64,000 bases of DNA from the sequence record OR352954; one strand, given 5' to 3'. Positions 23,778 through 30,379 of the stretch are shown here, piece after piece; position 1 is the stretch's first letter, and each line of letters opens with the position of its first letter. The notes beneath the pieces were generated by a model that had not been told where the DNA came from, did no database searches, and was given only the letters and a program-made list of their open reading frames with translations. This DNA comes from Escherichia phage AV124. The position numbers and the translations under genes were made by a program.

Positions 23778-24056
23778 TCACAAGACGGTGTACTCATACG
23801 TACTCATCCCTCTGCGTTCTGTAGATAGATACCCTAGTGCCACGAGGTTTTTTATGGATGTACTGATTGACCTTTCAGACACACCCGTAGCTTCACTAAT
23901 CGTTTTATAACTAGCAAAGTATTTCTTCCCTTTTGTCTCTAAGTATCCTGCCTTGTACTTTATGTGGAGCAGGACACGAAGATCTGTGCATGACAGGTTC
24001 TTATCATGCAGCTCTTTTTCGTCACAAGCTACCCACTTCTCACTCTTTTTTGGCAT
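23778..24056 (-). CDS. winged-helix DNA-binding protein (putative transcriptional regulator)
   Basis: ASYKTISEATGVSERSISTSIKNLVALGYL is a typical HTH recognition pattern; start trimmed to ATG after GGAG. Confidence 0.45.
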   Translation of the reverse strand: MPKKSEKWVACDEKELHDKNLSCTDLRVLLHIKYKAGYLETKGKKYFASYKTISEATGVSERSISTSIKNLVALGYLSTERRGMSTYEYTVL

Positions 24057-24450
24057 CCAAGTATTTCTCCAAATGAGTGAGTACAACCCCTTGGGCATAC
24101 TCTTGAGATGCATCATTGTGGTGAAGAACAGCCAGATCACATCCAAGTTTGTGCAAACTCCTCTCGAATGGAGACAAGTGTGTCATCATAACTTCGACCA
24201 GACTAAGCTCTTCTTCTGTGATGTGGAGGGGATCATCCGTGAAATCCCTGGAGATGAGAATCTCTCTCTCACCTCCTTCTCCGTGACCATAGACCTCGAC
24301 AATCCTCCTGTTACAGAAAATTTCGTACTGATAGCCGTTCCAATCTTGACCGTCTTGGGCTTCAAAGTTCACAATGAGGCAACAACCAAGCCCCAACAAG
24401 AGTACCTGGAAATCCAAATTGTGAACAATTTTTTTATTTAAAGTGTTCAT
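24040..24450 (-). CDS. hypothetical acidic protein
   Basis: ORF in minus-strand array. Confidence 0.4.
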   Translation of the reverse strand: MNTLNKKIVHNLDFQVLLLGLGCCLIVNFEAQDGQDWNGYQYEIFCNRRIVEVYGHGEGGEREILISRDFTDDPLHITEEELSLVEVMMTHLSPFERSLHKLGCDLAVLHHNDASQEYAQGVVLTHLEKYLDAKKE

Positions 24451-25873
24451 CTAAGTCCACAGCTTTTCCAAATGGTGGAATCCAACCCTTGCGCCCACCG
24501 CAGATAACCCAGAGAGTGTTGTACTTACGCCCCCAGCTTGAGCCACGATGTCTCAGGTCCTCTATGTAACCATCTGTGAAGATTATAACCTCTTTTGCCT
24601 TAGGAATAAACTCATCGATGTACTCAAAAGCACATGCAGCAGTTGTCCCACCAGTCGATGTAACTCTGTAATCCAGAATTTCCTTTATGTTATCCTGTGT
24701 GTACACGTTGACGTTGCCAACTTGGGTTGACCAACAGAACAATGTGATACGGAAACATTGGTACAGGGTGCTCAAAGCGATTATCTCATTGAAGATACGT
24801 GTCATTGTTTGACGAGAGATAGAACCTGAAACGTCAAAACCGATTACAATATCAACAGTCTCTGTTCTTTTTCTGCCAGGCATAACCATGAACTGTTTCT
24901 TAGTTAGAGCGCCGTGATCACGAAGGACTTTTGTCATTCCTCCTGATCGACGACCTAAGACCCGATAAGTACGGTCTGATTTAACACGAGAAATCATTCG
25001 CTGCTTAATGATTTGCAGGTAATTAATCTTCGGTTTACCTTTTTGTGCGATTAATTCTCTGGCTTCTTTTGGCCCTTCACCACCTGCGGCTTTCATAGCA
25101 GCGTCAATCATGTCCTCAGACCAAGACATATCCTCATCTTCCTGATCAGCAGACTTCTGTGGGTGTGGGTCCGTATACCCCAGGATGTCAAGGTCTTTAT
25201 CATAATCCCCTATGTGCGCTCCCAGCGGCTTACCTTCACCGTCACCAATCTCTTCCGGTAGTAGAGCATAAATCTCTTCAGCCGTTTTTCCCTCATATTG
25301 GTAATCGCAATAACAGTAAGCAAGGAAACCAAATTCTTTTGACTTATCAAACACTTGTCGATGAGTGAACCATTTCAAACTCTCGGCTTTCTGGCCCAAC
25401 TCCTTGACTAGGTCAGTATTGATATAGTGATCAGCGGCGATGTTGAAACGTTTGCGATCAAATGTTTTCCCACGAGACATGTGGTCGTTGGTGACATGGC
25501 GGACCTCATGCATCATGATGAATACAATTTCTTTCATGGTCTTTTGACGATAAAATACATTGATGTACTCTTTGTAATCATCTTTTTGCTGTTGTGTCAT
25601 CATCGGATGCTTGTCAATACGAGCAAAGACTTTTTTCTTGCGATCAGCAGGCATACCCATAATGAACTCTGGGTTAAAGTATAGATTGCGATGATCAGTT
25701 GCTGCGGTTGGAAGCCATGCACAGTCAACTATCAGCGGCATACCGCTTAATAATGTCCCATAGAATGGTCGATTAGTAAGTAAAGCGATGCGGGCAGACT
25801 GAACTCTCTTCAGTGCTTCATCAGCCAGTTCCATAATGCTTTCTTTTTCATCAGTATACATTCTTATCTCCAA
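24434..25873 (-). CDS. vWA domain protein with N-terminal HExxH metallopeptidase-like domain
   Basis: HExxH motif (MMHEVRH) in N-terminal half; MIDAS-like DVSGSIS in C-terminal half. Confidence 0.6.
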   Translation of the reverse strand: MEIRMYTDEKESIMELADEALKRVQSARIALLTNRPFYGTLLSGMPLIVDCAWLPTAATDHRNLYFNPEFIMGMPADRKKKVFARIDKHPMMTQQQKDDYKEYINVFYRQKTMKEIVFIMMHEVRHVTNDHMSRGKTFDRKRFNIAADHYINTDLVKELGQKAESLKWFTHRQVFDKSKEFGFLAYCYCDYQYEGKTAEEIYALLPEEIGDGEGKPLGAHIGDYDKDLDILGYTDPHPQKSADQEDEDMSWSEDMIDAAMKAAGGEGPKEARELIAQKGKPKINYLQIIKQRMISRVKSDRTYRVLGRRSGGMTKVLRDHGALTKKQFMVMPGRKRTETVDIVIGFDVSGSISRQTMTRIFNEIIALSTLYQCFRITLFCWSTQVGNVNVYTQDNIKEILDYRVTSTGGTTAACAFEYIDEFIPKAKEVIIFTDGYIEDLRHRGSSWGRKYNTLWVICGGRKGWIPPFGKAVDLDEHFK

Positions 25874-25910
25874 GAAAAAAGGCCATCAGTTACGATGGCC
25901 TTATTATAGG

Positions 25911-26171
25911 TTAATTCATCACCCTTTGCAATGCAATTTGGGGTAAAAATTCATCTATCCCCTCAACCCTGAAACCCCACGCTAATTGTGGACCAGGCGC
26001 TCCCGGAAGGTGAGGAACAGCAAACAAGACGATCCCATCAATAGCTCCGCGAATCGCGTTCTCTGTGAAAGTCTCTACCAGATCCCCGAAATTAAGACCC
26101 GGCCTGAAGCCAGCATTCAGCATTTTTTGCTCTGGCGCGGATGCAGGCCTGCCCAAGATATCTTCGTACAT
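25911..26171 (-). CDS. hypothetical protein
   Basis: ORF in minus-strand array. Confidence 0.4.
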   Translation of the reverse strand: MYEDILGRPASAPEQKMLNAGFRPGLNFGDLVETFTENAIRGAIDGIVLFAVPHLPGAPGPQLAWGFRVEGIDEFLPQIALQRVMN

Positions 26172-27037
26172 TACACCACCTTGTTGAGCATTGCTGCAAC
26201 TTTTGGCAGGCTCAGGCCCGTCTGGATCATCAGTTGGGTCATCGCAGTTTCCATTTTCTTGGAGACAATGATGAAATTATCTTTGGCAAAGCCAATGTTC
26301 AGATCCAGAATCAGAATAGATTTCGGTTCTTCAGTTAATTTTTCACCAGATAAGGCACAGGTGTTGCGAATGTATCGTGCCTTAAATTGCGAATAGGTGA
26401 CCGATACAGACATTCCAGCCTCGTGGAAGGTGTTGCAGTAACGGGCATACGCCAATGCAACAGAGACGTCCTCAGGCAACTTCTGGGCCTCTTTCTGAGC
26501 ACTTGTCTCTTCCGCCGCAGGTTTTTGGTTGTGAACATGTTCTTCGGCATTATCCATAGCGTTCTGCATTGTCTCTTCAGTATTCATTTCGTTCTCCTGT
26601 TGTGGGATATATTTGGTTTTCAGTTTTTCAAGGTGGTCTTTGGACATGTTCAACATCATGGCCTTTACTATTTCGCGATCTAAAGGATCTTGAATCAGTA
26701 TAGATGTTGTCTTGTCAACTAAACGGTCCTTAAGTTGGTTTGCGCGAAGCATAACCACACAGACGTTTCCCCGGACATACCCTTTCGAGTCATCGATTCT
26801 CTCTATAGACGGATACCTTGGGTTAGCTTCCTCACCATCATTCGCGATGTTGGTACTGAAAGGTAGCCCCGTGTAATCACAAGAGCCGTGGCCCAAAAGC
26901 TTGAATCCGAGCATACGCATATCTTGCATTGTTAAATCACAGTCAAGGCCCCGTTTTCGAGCATTCAACTTCTTATGCTTCAAACGATTCCTCAACTTTT
27001 CCACTTCTTCAGGTGTAAACTCTTGTAATACAGACAT
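26171..27037 (-). CDS. HNH endonuclease-like protein
   Basis: CDYTGLPF...PSIERIDDSKGYVRGNVCVVMLRANQLK matches phage HNH nuclease core; SD AAGGAG. Confidence 0.5.
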   Translation of the reverse strand: MSVLQEFTPEEVEKLRNRLKHKKLNARKRGLDCDLTMQDMRMLGFKLLGHGSCDYTGLPFSTNIANDGEEANPRYPSIERIDDSKGYVRGNVCVVMLRANQLKDRLVDKTTSILIQDPLDREIVKAMMLNMSKDHLEKLKTKYIPQQENEMNTEETMQNAMDNAEEHVHNQKPAAEETSAQKEAQKLPEDVSVALAYARYCNTFHEAGMSVSVTYSQFKARYIRNTCALSGEKLTEEPKSILILDLNIGFAKDNFIIVSKKMETAMTQLMIQTGLSLPKVAAMLNKVV

Positions 27038-27076
27038 TTCTAACTCCTTGGGTCTTGCCCGTTCTTAGTAAGGTGA

Positions 27077-27104
27077 TTATCACCATTCGGAAAAGGGTTG
27101 TCAA
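27077..27104 (-). promoter_or_regulatory. sigma70 consensus promoter TTGACA-N17-GATAAT (minus strand) in divergent region
   Basis: Minus-strand read TTGACA ACCCTTTTCCGAATGGT GATAAT upstream of SD AAGGAG and ATG at 27037. Confidence 0.5.
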
Positions 27105-27170
27105 CCCTTGATTTCTAAAAAGTGGCGGTGTATCTTTGTCCATTATTCGTATAAGAGGGTAAGTGAGATT

Positions 27171-28178
27171 ATGAGCAAAGTAGATATTAATGTAAAACCA
27201 AACGAGGCTTGGAATGAGGAGCGAGATTTCATAGATAAGTTGTTACAAGGGAAGCAGGCTGCTCAAGAGAGATTTCTTTCAACTTTTGAGAGGGACAGAC
27301 ATGTTGACAATCCCATCACCCGCTTTATCGAGTATCTTCGTGGGGTGGGGGATCAGAATCCTGTGTTGGAAATTGTTTTGTCTTGCCTTCATAAACTTCC
27401 CACACATGGCGGACCTTTTTATTGGGAATGGTTTGATGGTAATGATGAGGATGTGATGGATTTCGCTTTTGATATGAATCGGAAGACTACCTCTCATTCC
27501 CTATCCAGTATGGTGGCAGAGCATAGAACACATCGCACAGGCGGAAATCATCCTTGGTCAGATCGTTTAACAGAGACAGTGGAACTTTGTTTTCATGGTC
27601 ATGGGAATAGTGAGGCGTTTAAATGCTCGTTCTGGGATTTTTCACACCGTACCCGCAATTTTCTTTATCATTTGAAGCCTCTTCTTGAGGATATGTCGAA
27701 TGGGGATGACCTTCGTTTAGTTGTAGAGTATGCGAGTCATCAAAGAAATGCCTCGATATCGTGGAAGAATCTCCCTGCTGGTCGATTTGAACTTCTGCAT
27801 GTGAGGCTGGTTTGTGGTGACTTGGTTCTTTACTCTGACTATCTTGAGCCTTCGGCGTTCGATCGTGTTTGTAGCCAACTGAACCATTCTGTTATCAACA
27901 TCATGAACAGAAAGATCGCTAATAAGGCACGTAAAGCAATGTTCGTTTGTTCTCCGAAAGAAACGATGTTCCACTTGGAATATGACCCCAAGCTACAGAG
28001 CATGATGGAGGGGGACTCCCCGACAGAAGAAGAACTCATGATGATGTCTATTGCAGGATATGAAGATGAGTTTTGGCTTGACAACGTAAAATCTTTCGAT
28101 AGACTGAACATAAAACCCTTTAACCTAGAGGAAGCTGTCAAATGGTATCAACAGACAAGAGTTGTATTCAAGCTTTAA
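27171..28178 (+). CDS. hypothetical protein
   Basis: First gene of rightward block; track ORF 27108 trimmed to ATG after AGAGGG. Confidence 0.5.
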   Translation: MSKVDINVKPNEAWNEERDFIDKLLQGKQAAQERFLSTFERDRHVDNPITRFIEYLRGVGDQNPVLEIVLSCLHKLPTHGGPFYWEWFDGNDEDVMDFAFDMNRKTTSHSLSSMVAEHRTHRTGGNHPWSDRLTETVELCFHGHGNSEAFKCSFWDFSHRTRNFLYHLKPLLEDMSNGDDLRLVVEYASHQRNASISWKNLPAGRFELLHVRLVCGDLVLYSDYLEPSAFDRVCSQLNHSVINIMNRKIANKARKAMFVCSPKETMFHLEYDPKLQSMMEGDSPTEEELMMMSIAGYEDEFWLDNVKSFDRLNIKPFNLEEAVKWYQQTRVVFKL

Positions 28179-28651
28179 GTCCAGCACAAGAACTTGCTTT
28201 GGCAATTAAAATTGCAGCAGAAGGCCACCTGAATCAGAAAGATAAGGGTGGTAACCCGTACATCCTTCATCCACTGAAGGTAATGCACTACCTGAAGACT
28301 GATGATTTTCAGCTCATGGCTATCGCTGCCCTACATGATGTTATCGAAGATACTGACGTTATGGCGGCTGATCTCGTGATGATGGGATTCTCCAACCGTG
28401 TTGTCTGTGCAGTGGTCCTACTGACGAAGACACCAAACCAGTCACCAGAAGAATATTTTCAGGGTATTGCAAGCAACTACGACGCGGTTCGTGTGAAGCT
28501 TGCAGACCTGCGTCACAACTCTGACGTTCGTCGCCTGAAAGGTCTGACAGATAAGGATTTGTTGCGTGTTCGTAAGTATCACGACATGTATCTTCGTTTG
28601 ACAAAGATGAAAGAACACCACGAAGCGATCAACGTCTTATCTAAACTATAA
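28142..28651 (+). CDS. HD-domain phosphohydrolase, SpoT/RelA (p)ppGpp-hydrolase-like
   Basis: GNPYILHPLKV and AALHDVIEDTD match the SpoT-type HD hydrolase signature. Confidence 0.75.
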   Translation: MVSTDKSCIQALSPAQELALAIKIAAEGHLNQKDKGGNPYILHPLKVMHYLKTDDFQLMAIAALHDVIEDTDVMAADLVMMGFSNRVVCAVVLLTKTPNQSPEEYFQGIASNYDAVRVKLADLRHNSDVRRLKGLTDKDLLRVRKYHDMYLRLTKMKEHHEAINVLSKL

Positions 28652-28710
28652 AGGAGTGCCACTGATGACAATTAAATCAAGTGATGAATTTGAACTGAGG
28701 GGGATAAAAA

Positions 28711-29088
28711 ATGCCTGACTGGAAAACTACTCTTGACATAAGTGATATATGGTCTAAAAGAAATGGTGAATGCGGCAGAGAAGACTGGACAGACAAGACG
28801 GTGCATGAGCTTGCTAAGGAGATAGCTCGTCGTCTTGAACGGAAATTCCCTCGCGAGTCAAACTATGACAACTGGGATAATGGCTGCGATTATGAGCTGT
28901 GTGATATAATTGGCTATTTCCGGGATGTTTCAACATACCCAGATTGGTTAGCCTCTATTGCGGAATGTGAGAATGAGGGGTATGATGCCGACCCAATTCG
29001 CCATTATACACCCTTGCGGGAATTCAACGACATCATGAAAGATTTTTATGATTGGTGTGATGAAAATCGTGTTTGGGTGGATAAATAA
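28711..29088 (+). CDS. hypothetical protein
   Basis: ORF in array; Trp/Asp-rich. Confidence 0.45.
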   Translation: MPDWKTTLDISDIWSKRNGECGREDWTDKTVHELAKEIARRLERKFPRESNYDNWDNGCDYELCDIIGYFRDVSTYPDWLASIAECENEGYDADPIRHYTPLREFNDIMKDFYDWCDENRVWVDK

Positions 29089-29151
29089 TCATTGCAATGG
29101 GGGAGGATCAAATGTATCCTGCTCCCGAATTTCATTTACAGGAGACAAATA

Positions 29152-30348
29152 ATGTCAAGTCGCAACATCTTTTCTGGTAACTGGATCACTTTGCGTGATC
29201 TCCCGCCGCTCGTACAATTTTGCCAGCGTCACAAACGTTCACTGATGATCTTCGGCGGGGCAGGTATTGGTAAAAGTCAGGCTGTGAAGCAAATTGCGGA
29301 TTCTCTTTTCGGGCCTGGTGATAACTTGGTAGACTTCCGCTTGGCTGATAAAGATAACACCGACCTCACCGGGGTGCAGATTCCATACACCGATGACAAT
29401 GGTGTTACTCGCACAGTGTACGCCTTGCCGGATTTCTGGCCTCGTGATCCTAACTGGAAAGGTATTGTGTTCCTTGACGAGCTTCTCCACGCCGAGCCTT
29501 ACCTTCAGAAACTGGCATTCCAAATCATGCTGGACCGTCGAATCGGGACCTACCAGTTCCCTGAAGGGGCTGTACTGGTTGCTGCTGGTAACCGTGCTGG
29601 GGATGGTACTGCCGTGACTGCACTGGAAGCTCCTTTGGCTAACCGTATGATGCTGGTAGAGCTTACCTATAGCGCATCGGTGTTCATCGAAGACTATGCC
29701 ATGCAGAACGGTATTCATTCGTCAATCATTGGTTTTCTGTCTCGTAAGAACAGTGCTATTGAAAACTATGAAGAAATGCTGGATATCGGGTGTCCTTCTT
29801 TCGCCACACCGCGTACTTTAACTTACGCCAGTGATGTATTGTACGATTACGATGCTAATTTGCTGCCTGCCAACCTAGCTAAGGTTGCTCTTCAGGGCTT
29901 CATTGGCACACCTTTAATGGCTGAACTGTGGGCATACCACACTAAGATTCGTAATATGGTCCCGATCGAAGACGTTATGAACGGTACTGCCCAAGACCCC
30001 GGAGACCTTCCATCCGATAGTTTGTGGATTTTAGGTTCCGAAGGTGCTATTTGGTTGCGTAAGGCTATTGCAGATACCAACTACACCGATGATCAGATTA
30101 TTGAATTCTCTGGTAACTTCCTACAGTATCTTTATGATCACTTTATGGACCAGAACCGAGACTTCGTAAGCTCTATTTTCCTGTCGTTCATTAAGGAAAA
30201 TGCATTCGGTAAGGCGCTGTTGACCACTGCAAGCAACCGTGACAAGCTTCCTGCACGTTTGTTGAAGGCAAAGCCCATCATAATGAAAATTATGGCAGAC
30301 TTCCAGGTCAACTACGCTGAAGATATTAAGCTTATCGAAGGAAAATAA
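29152..30348 (+). CDS. AAA+ ATPase (AAA_5/MoxR-like)
   Basis: Walker A GGAGIGKSQ, Walker B VFLDEL, sensor region AAGNRAGDGT; start trimmed to ATG after AGGAGA. Confidence 0.6.
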   Translation: MSSRNIFSGNWITLRDLPPLVQFCQRHKRSLMIFGGAGIGKSQAVKQIADSLFGPGDNLVDFRLADKDNTDLTGVQIPYTDDNGVTRTVYALPDFWPRDPNWKGIVFLDELLHAEPYLQKLAFQIMLDRRIGTYQFPEGAVLVAAGNRAGDGTAVTALEAPLANRMMLVELTYSASVFIEDYAMQNGIHSSIIGFLSRKNSAIENYEEMLDIGCPSFATPRTLTYASDVLYDYDANLLPANLAKVALQGFIGTPLMAELWAYHTKIRNMVPIEDVMNGTAQDPGDLPSDSLWILGSEGAIWLRKAIADTNYTDDQIIEFSGNFLQYLYDHFMDQNRDFVSSIFLSFIKENAFGKALLTTASNRDKLPARLLKAKPIIMKIMADFQVNYAEDIKLIEGK

Positions 30349-30350
30349 TA

Positions 30351-30379
30351 TTGACAGCCCCTCTTGGGGCTGTTATGCT
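30351..30379 (+). promoter_or_regulatory. sigma70-like promoter TTGACA-N17-TATGCT with hairpin in spacer
   Basis: TTGACA GCCCCTCTTGGGGCTGT TATGCT; spacer forms CAGCCCC-TCTT-GGGGCTG stem-loop. Confidence 0.4.

Follow-up and report, generated by a model that had tools for sequence, protein, structure and literature searches.

Why should two genes whose products look like working partners lie apart and face away from each other? The question is raised by a 64,000-nucleotide stretch of Escherichia phage AV124 (sequence record OR352954), referred to throughout as the window. In it, the genes for a putative zinc peptidase fused to a von Willebrand factor A (vWA) domain and for an AAA+ ATPase occupy opposite strands, 3.3 kb apart, on either side of a divergent promoter junction. 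We consider it likely that the two are an ATPase and a zincin-vWA adaptor of the type of gp24 and gp25 of phage N4, split by one inversion and still driven from the same junction. The window is ~91% identical in nucleotide sequence to Klebsiella and Raoultella phages in Mydovirus, a genus of rV5-like myoviruses of ~145 kb (Vequintavirinae), and its gene layout is that of phage Seu621.

The two proteins

24434-25861, minus strand: N4 gp25-like protein with a zincin (HExxH) signature and a vWA domain with a metal ion-dependent adhesion site (MIDAS) (Pfam; phrog_1314, 2e-116; invariant motifs; AlphaFold2 model, predicted local distance difference test [pLDDT] 86.1)
29152-30348, plus strand: N4 gp24-like protein of 398 amino acids (aa), predicted MoxR-class AAA+ ATPase (phrog_1297, 4e-100; remote homologues; profile; AlphaFold2 model; motifs)

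The leftward protein had been described from its letters as an HExxH metallopeptidase-like N terminus joined to a vWA/MIDAS C terminus, and both parts are borne out at the level of sequence: the named motifs are present, and two Pfam domains exceed their cut-offs, in the N-to-C order DUF2201_N (PF13203; E 3e-22, 79.9 bits, cut-off 23.2) and DUF2201 VWA-like (PF09967; E 2e-10, 41.1 bits, cut-off 26.4). HEVRH occupies residues 122-126 of the 479-aa frame (25510-25496) and DVSGS, followed by IS, residues 347-351 (24835-24821). In alignments across phage lineages and cellular homologues, the zinc-site residues H122, E123, H126, and H131 are invariant, as is the MIDAS set D347, S349, S351, T410, and D434. 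Structure searches place the C-terminal half in the vWA fold (Rossmann-like alpha/beta), with matches to the VWA domain of NorD, to BchD, and to the MDN1 MIDAS. The N-terminal half is a putative zincin peptidase; weak sequence matches of the HExxH region are to Lit (NCBIfam, 1e-4), the minigluzincin MJ1213 (E 0.03), and M48 (E 0.15).

The open reading frame (ORF) of 479 aa exists as predicted (24434-25873, minus strand), but translation more likely starts at ATG 25861 than at TTG 25873, giving 475 aa. The ATG is favoured because a Shine-Dalgarno (SD) sequence, GGAG (25871-25868), precedes it and because 475 aa is the length annotated in relatives; the TTG adjoins the T-run of a terminator.

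For the rightward protein, the designation AAA_5/MoxR-like is not directly readable from the sequence, because no Pfam or NCBIfam family matches near threshold, and it holds by way of remote homologues, a profile, a structural model, and motifs. Homologues at E ~1e-36 carry AAA_3/AAA_5/bpMoxR (PF07726/PF07728/PF20030). A PDB search with the single sequence returned weak Clp D2 matches only, and a 54-sequence profile reached midasin AAA modules at 3e-22. The best Foldseek matches of the AlphaFold2 model (pLDDT 88.7) are NorQ (9qh4, 9qh6, and others) and CbbQ (6l1q, 5c3c), at E 6e-9 and template modelling (TM) scores of 0.65-0.67 (normalised to the target), and NorQ-NorD-VWA complexes are among the matches. 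The gene starts at ATG 29152 with the SD AGGAG and encodes Walker A (GGAGIGKS, 29254-29277) and Walker B (DE, 29476-29481) motifs; G38, G40, K41, and S42 of Walker A, D109 and E110 of Walker B, N147 (sensor-1), and the arginines R165 and R221 (finger / sensor 2) are invariant in the 54 sequences. Remote homology and predicted structure thus support a MoxR-class AAA+ ATPase indirectly.

Neither protein is new in itself. Public phage genomes include close relatives of both, which GenBank records name 'ATPase' or 'MoxR ATPase' and 'putative metallopeptidase domain protein'; descriptions of the pair exist for jumbo and N4-like phages; and a collection search matched the module in ~700-800 of 50,697 phage records. 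Both proteins of the window are 97-100% identical to those of its relatives, the ATPase being 100% identical to that of Seu621.

Gene order and a candidate inversion

Hidden Markov models of both families, made for this work, were run over 88 viral loci (8 annotated phage records and 80 from IMG/VR), and 58 bacterial or archaeal loci holding both genes—a sample dominated by Streptomyces—were surveyed alongside. In 69 of the 88, the two genes share a strand and the ATPase gene comes first, with gaps of -136 to 2,277 bp between stop-to-stop ORFs, and the genes are co-oriented and adjacent at 57 of the 58 cellular loci. Opposite strands, with the genes 3.4-5.1 kb apart, are found at 14 viral loci; the others comprise two without an ATPase in the flank and three incomplete contigs. 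It had been proposed that such proteins are partners whose genes usually form an adjacent, co-oriented pair, here about 3 kb apart on opposite strands. All of this stands: both ORFs are where they were placed, the gap is 3.3 kb, the proteins are homologues of the N4 gp24/gp25 pair, and co-oriented adjacency is near-universal in viral and bacterial loci. The two genes, moreover, strictly co-occur, and their products have structural kinship to MoxR-vWA machines. Because pairs elsewhere are nearly always adjacent and co-oriented, the window, which departs from the canonical order, is a genuine exception. The one cellular exception, in a Bacillales metagenome-assembled genome (CANHCR010000048.1, locus L098), departs from the usual co-orientation independently, with the ATPase gene 13 bp downstream of the vWA gene and convergent to it.

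The 14 split loci are exclusively Mydovirus-like (95-97% identity) or Vequintavirus-like (42-43%), and Seunavirus 4MG has the same split layout, as do Seu621 and naam. In a neighbour-joining tree of the vWA-peptidase, computed without support values, all split loci fall into one clade of 18 terminals, which includes two loci without a nearby ATPase gene and no locus of the adjacent type. Its sister is a Certrevirus/Kashira-like clade in which the adjacent order is kept. How the two layouts are related can be followed through the genes that flank the junction:

26171-27037, minus strand: Srd-like/endonuclease VII-like protein of 288 aa, first gene of the leftward unit (phrog_3118, 3e-94; phrog_1400 'Srd anti-sigma factor', 2e-22)
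27076-27136, both strands: back-to-back divergent promoter core (scan; alignment with Mydovirus and Seunavirus junctions)
27171-28178, plus strand: phrog_10920 protein of 335 aa, first gene of the rightward unit (1.5e-139; start as in Seu621)
28142-28651, plus strand: HD-domain phosphohydrolase, in the same unit as the ATPase (phrog_990, 1.5e-67; weak Pfam HD_4)

In the Serratia phage Kashira, helicase, RNA ligase, and Srd-like genes run leftward from the junction, and the rightward block comprises a first gene, the HD gene, small ORFs, the ATPase gene, the vWA-peptidase gene, and further small ORFs. Window and Kashira are collinear in the block downstream of the vWA gene and in the helicase/RNA-ligase block. 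The part that extends from the Srd-like gene across the junction as far as the ATPase gene has the reverse orientation, and the Srd-like homologue of Kashira is found on the other side of the junction. Synteny with Kashira and Certrevirus F4M1E puts one breakpoint where the ATPase gene adjoined the vWA gene, and the second past the Srd-like gene. The HD gene travelled with the ATPase gene, since its position upstream of the latter is kept in Kashira and F4M1E (50-55% identity). The comparison fits a split that is a derived state, produced by one inversion in the ancestor that Mydovirus, Seunavirus, and Vequintavirus share; and because the junction turned over together with its surroundings, a single region of ~130 bp is still upstream of both genes. 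No inverted repeats mark the two breakpoints today in a repeat comparison. All catalytic residues of both proteins are kept in the split clade, and the inversion is an ordinary rearrangement with no sign of altered use of the pair.

The two split-clade loci whose vWA gene has no ATPase gene in the surrounding 10-15 kb are Salmonella phage NINP13076 (MZ326168.1, L005) and the IMG/VR contig 3300045988_163358 (L015). NINP13076 has a primase/polymerase block in place of the HD-ATPase segment and looks rearranged against the ordinary split layout of 4MG; rearrangement, assembly error, or loss could account for both cases.

Promoters, a private cassette, and timing

The original prediction placed a divergent sigma70 promoter region at 27038-27170. 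Its leftward promoter (-35 TTGACA, 27104-27099; 17-nt spacer; -10 GATAAT, 27081-27076) scores 11/12 in a promoter scan and is upheld, whereas the rightward candidate (-35 TTGATT, 27108-27113; 17-nt spacer; -10 TATCTT, 27131-27136) scores 8/12, below the scan threshold, though both of its boxes are positionally kept in the diverged Seunavirus 4MG. The two -35 boxes are separated by 3 bp within a junction of ~130 bp, and all four boxes are conserved in Mydoviruses, with their positions kept in 4MG.

A second regulatory element stands immediately in front of the vWA gene:

25875-25931, minus strand: candidate cassette of promoter, hairpin, and T-run (promoter and terminator scans; sequence)
25911-26171, minus strand: ORF of 86 aa between the Srd-like and vWA genes (phrog_10489; present in Seu621 and 4MG)

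The cassette opens with a sigma70-like promoter (-35 TTGCAA, 25931-25926; 17-nt spacer; -10 TATAAT, 25908-25903). Two bases after the -10 begins a GC-rich hairpin of 7 bp (GGCCATC, 25900-25894; GATGGCC, 25887-25881), followed by a run of six Ts (25880-25875), the SD GGAG, and the ATG of the vWA gene. A scan of the 64-kb window finds this combination a single time, where Markov-shuffled sequence would give 0.1. The same design precedes the vWA gene of 4MG, in which the genes are split, and also those of Certrevirus F4M1E, Plateaulakevirus phiA009, and several uncultured relatives, in which the ATPase gene is the upstream neighbour (loci with the cassette besides the window: L089, L007, L008, L022, L023, L025, L029, L032, L033, and L036-L038); Kashira has a hairpin and a weaker promoter at this position. 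Across the viral survey, a hairpin with a T-run lies upstream of the vWA gene at 25 of 88 loci and of the ATPase gene at 5 of 83; with an abutting promoter of at least 9/12, the counts are 17 and 0. The cassette is absent from the N4-like loci among the 88.

Since split and adjacent relatives have the cassette in common, the vWA gene probably formed its own transcription unit ahead of the inversion. Read-through from upstream would end at the hairpin and T-run, and transcripts from the private promoter would begin within the 5′ arm of the hairpin and hence escape termination. Such a cassette would insulate the adaptor gene as a unit, already in the ancestral operon, and probably rendered an inversion break just upstream harmless. 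It may also hold the vWA adaptor sub-stoichiometric to the ATPase, as would suit the single adaptor on the NorQ hexamer of NorQD (PMC13036017).

Two other interpretations of the cassette were considered and rejected. The T4-type promoter-early stem-loop (PeSL) consists of many similar promoter and stem-loop cassettes scattered between early genes; the cassette described here is present as a single copy in the window and is not a dispersed element of that kind. Nor did inverted cassette copies mediate the inversion, as the cassette is unique and no convincing inverted repeat links the breakpoints. Separately, an 18-nt inverted match of 83% lies upstream of both partner genes, at 25916-25933 (CATTGCAAAGGGTGATGA) and 29090-29107 (CATTGCAATGGGGGAGGA), each copy including TTGCAA; it is probably due to chance and could be a shared regulatory site.

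Strands and promoters together bear on timing. The original prediction took the layout to place the two genes in different temporal or regulatory classes, and this is the part that finds no support: both lie behind back-to-back sigma70-type promoters, in blocks of early-type genes, at a junction that flipped as a unit. The neighbours on the two sides include the Srd-like gene, the gene for the HD protein (annotated as a ppGpp 3′-pyrophosphohydrolase in relatives), RNA ligase, rIIA/B, and many small ORFs, and the context of the pair, as judged from sequence, is early or middle (host takeover, nucleic-acid metabolism) rather than late morphogenesis. Because the conserved sigma70-type junction is shared and early-type genes flank both sides, there is no sign of different temporal classes; and because the cassette of the vWA gene is also present where the genes are adjacent, any regulatory separation predates the split. 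A literature search found no transcriptome of any rV5-like phage. In certreviruses, which have no RNA polymerase of their own, sigma70-like promoters are concentrated in the early region of small ORFs (PMC7344957).

It might still be argued that the genes were functionally uncoupled once split, and came to be expressed in different classes and perhaps to act separately. They do occupy opposite strands and different transcription units, the vWA gene is served by a promoter of its own, with a terminator upstream, the junction promoters are unequal in consensus strength (11/12 against 8/12), and NINP13076 and the IMG/VR contig lack a nearby ATPase gene. We regard uncoupling as highly doubtful, however, given that both promoters are of the sigma70 type and stand back to back in a conserved junction that flipped whole, with early-type genes in both flanking blocks, that the vWA cassette occurs with the adjacent order too, that every catalytic residue is kept in both proteins—themselves 97-100% identical to their relatives—and that NINP13076 looks rearranged.

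Several further features of the neighbourhood deserve mention. The N-terminal ~110-180 residues of the Srd-like protein match Srd anti-sigma, 'decoy of host sigma70', and endonuclease VII-type PHROGs, and the protein may be a nuclease or a modulator of RNA polymerase. The 335-aa phrog_10920 protein has no Pfam match, and PADLOC returned no defence-system match for the vWA-peptidase, the ATPase, or the two junction genes. The region 26171-28178 appears locally mosaic, its Srd-like and phrog_10920 proteins being ~65% and ~72% identical to their Mydovirus counterparts, against 97-100% for the flanking vWA-peptidase and ATPase (protein) and 94-97% for the intergenic promoter region (DNA). Right after the ATPase stop, at 30351-30379 (plus strand), lies a strong promoter-like site (TTGACA, 17 nt, TGnTATGCT) whose spacer is an 8-bp GC-rich palindrome (ACAGCCCC/GGGGCTGT) that might be an operator or an opposite-strand terminator.

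On the other flank, the stop of the vWA gene is overlapped by one more ORF:

24040-24450, minus strand: ORF of 136 aa (ORF list; homologues in Seu621 and 4MG)

A gene of 125-136 aa always directly follows the vWA-peptidase gene, also at L006 (16723-17103) and L007 (16551-16928). The 136-aa ORF of the Mydovirus and Seunavirus type matches the gene in the same position of Kashira and F4M1E weakly in hhalign (probability 41%, E 2.8e-4, 92 columns), and it may be a conserved downstream companion, and thus a third member of the module, or a positional coincidence.

Some PHROG-derived names in this region look wrong and have spread through many GenBank and RefSeq records. The label 'HNH endonuclease' (phrog_1314) is attached to what is a DUF2201 peptidase-vWA protein, 'thymidylate kinase' (phrog_10920) has no Pfam support, and 'tail protein' (phrog_10489) is doubtful for an 86-aa ORF of the early region. 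Correction of such propagated mis-annotations, that of the vWA-peptidase above all, is a by-product of this work.

Function and comparison with known systems

If the pair works as NorQ-NorD and CbbQ-CbbO do, the ATPase would assemble as a hexamer with one vWA-peptidase docked on it; in NorQD, one adaptor sits on the hexamer (PMC13036017). The MIDAS metal site of the vWA domain would hold a client via an acidic residue, ATP hydrolysis would pull or twist the vWA protein so that the client is exposed to the zincin site, and the fused peptidase would then cut it. Hexamer docking, MIDAS binding of a client, and ATP-driven pulling are thus mechanistic steps that we infer from those machines.

A number of points weigh against the reading of a gp24/gp25-type pair, split by inversion and driven from one junction. 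The zincin fold of the N-terminal half was not recovered by fold searches, in which the vWA domain dominated the matches, and the 398-aa protein finds no Pfam or NCBIfam family near threshold, AAA_3/AAA_5 membership included at the curated threshold. The inversion model also requires that small ORFs were gained or lost, and between window and Kashira no homology is detectable in the first gene past the junction. As to regulation, the rightward promoter at the junction is a poor match to the consensus, Vequintavirus and three Mydovirus-like loci (L012-L014) with a different upstream gene do not have the cassette, and we infer from sequence the transcription start that is placed inside the cassette hairpin.

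What the pair acts on is a separate matter. The early or middle context in Vequintavirinae and N4 favours a target in host takeover or replication over one in virion morphogenesis. In its most specific form, this would make the pair an ATP-driven, MIDAS-targeted, site-specific early protease for host takeover, insulated by the cassette at a fixed sub-stoichiometric ratio. Its target would be a host protein, which it would capture and cleave, alongside the products of the Srd-like anti-sigma and ppGpp-hydrolase genes, and the promoter-inside-terminator cassette would have insulated the adaptor gene such that the inversion could break the operon without cost. So detailed a proposal is tentative, and we would not expect it to hold in full.

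Virion assembly is the role proposed for the equivalent pair in group 2.2 jumbo phages, in analogy with tail development in the Acidianus two-tailed virus (Iyer et al. 2021, PMC7824862). On that view, a chaperone-protease would fold or assemble structural proteins and process them proteolytically. It is in keeping with phAPEC6, whose pair lies just downstream of structural genes (tail sheath, head completion), and with N4-like roseophages, in which some virion-protein genes are near gp24/gp25 (PMC4193335). In the window and all Vequintavirinae examined, however, the genes are found among early-type genes behind sigma70-like promoters, N4 gp24/gp25 are middle rather than late transcripts (PMC4193335), and the phiA009 pair belongs to an early-type block, divergent beside the DNA polymerase/primase block. 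The main text of the CB7 virion proteome makes no mention of the ATPase or the vWA protein, although a chaperone need not be in virions. An assembly role therefore seems unlikely for the pair of the window.

A third possibility is that the pair is a cofactor- or metal-insertion chaperone for a phage or host enzyme, with HExxH serving as a metal-binding or adaptor module rather than as a protease. The models would be NorQD (iron into NOR), CbbQO (Rubisco activation), and the CobST and BchID chelatases, under the general MoxR-vWA paradigm (PMC13036017); NorQ and CbbQ are indeed the closest solved structural relatives of the ATPase, and the vWA domain resembles those of NorD and BchD and the MDN1 MIDAS. 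Such a role is nonetheless less likely because the catalytic glutamate is invariant: the zincin signature, including the general base E123, is unchanged from N4-like phages to bacteria, which argues for hydrolysis. Moreover, no conserved gene for a client enzyme accompanies the pair across phage families, and we consider insertion very unlikely.

To what was known of these proteins, the window adds that the split is a clade-wide derived state, best fitted by one inversion that carried the promoter junction along, that the split lends no support to temporal separation, and that a conserved promoter/terminator cassette of its own precedes the putative adaptor-protease gene. Whether the two genes need co-expression is a question for which the split clade is a natural resource; the practical pay-off is modest.

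Among known systems, the closest is that of the N4-like phages (Schitoviridae), in which gp24 (AAA ATPase) and gp25 (vWFA) are two of 14 core genes, transcribed as middle genes and without an assigned function (PMC4193335); a literature search found no experiment on their function. The proteins are homologous to those of the window, both family models matching strongly, and tblastn reaches the gp24-like and gp25-like proteins of Litunavirus Ab09 (ORF30 and ORF32) at E 2e-12 and 1e-17. The N4 genes are not late ones, and the context of those of the window is likewise early or middle. In the N4-likes, however, the two genes are co-oriented, 0-2 kb apart, and served by the phage RNA polymerase II, whereas in the window they occupy opposite strands and follow promoters of the sigma70 type; the vWA proteins of N4-like phages are also shorter (~335-410 aa).

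Group 2.2 jumbo phages encode what has been called a 'chaperone-cochaperone pair' of MoxR ATPase and metallopeptidase-vWA protein, with a proposed role in virion assembly or processing (Iyer et al. 2021, PMC7824862). The two-protein architecture, with an N-terminal peptidase fused to the vWA domain, is the same, and the homologues in Asteriusvirus phAPEC6 are 24-28% identical. Their genes are adjacent and co-oriented, with a gap of ~60-75 nt, unlike the split pair of the window, and the early-gene context in Vequintavirinae does not favour the assembly role proposed there. In the Acidianus two-tailed virus, likewise, a MoxR ATPase works together with a vWA protein (as cited in PMC7824862); by its description this system is set apart by the absence of a peptidase domain, an archaeal host range, and extracellular tail development.

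Bacteria and archaea, for instance Izemoplasmatales and Oxobacter, have DUF2201_N-DUF2201 proteins with the same Pfam architecture and the same MoxR partner, at 21-26% identity, and some of these may be prophage-borne (TerL nearby at L091/L092). NorQ-NorD and CbbQ-CbbO share with the phage pair the fold of the ATPase—they are the best PDB matches of its model—and a vWA domain with an intact MIDAS, and docking of one adaptor would be expected for both. They differ in sequence (~15-20% identity), in that NorD and CbbO are without a peptidase domain, and in their clients, NOR and Rubisco, which are irrelevant to a phage; the phage ATPase, for its part, has an extra helical C-terminal region of ~140 residues. 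Midasin/Rea1, finally, provides the best PDB profile match of the ATPase (3e-22), and the MDN1 MIDAS is among the structural matches of the vWA domain. There, too, AAA_5-type modules act with a MIDAS domain, albeit within one giant eukaryotic polypeptide of six fused AAA modules devoted to ribosome biogenesis.

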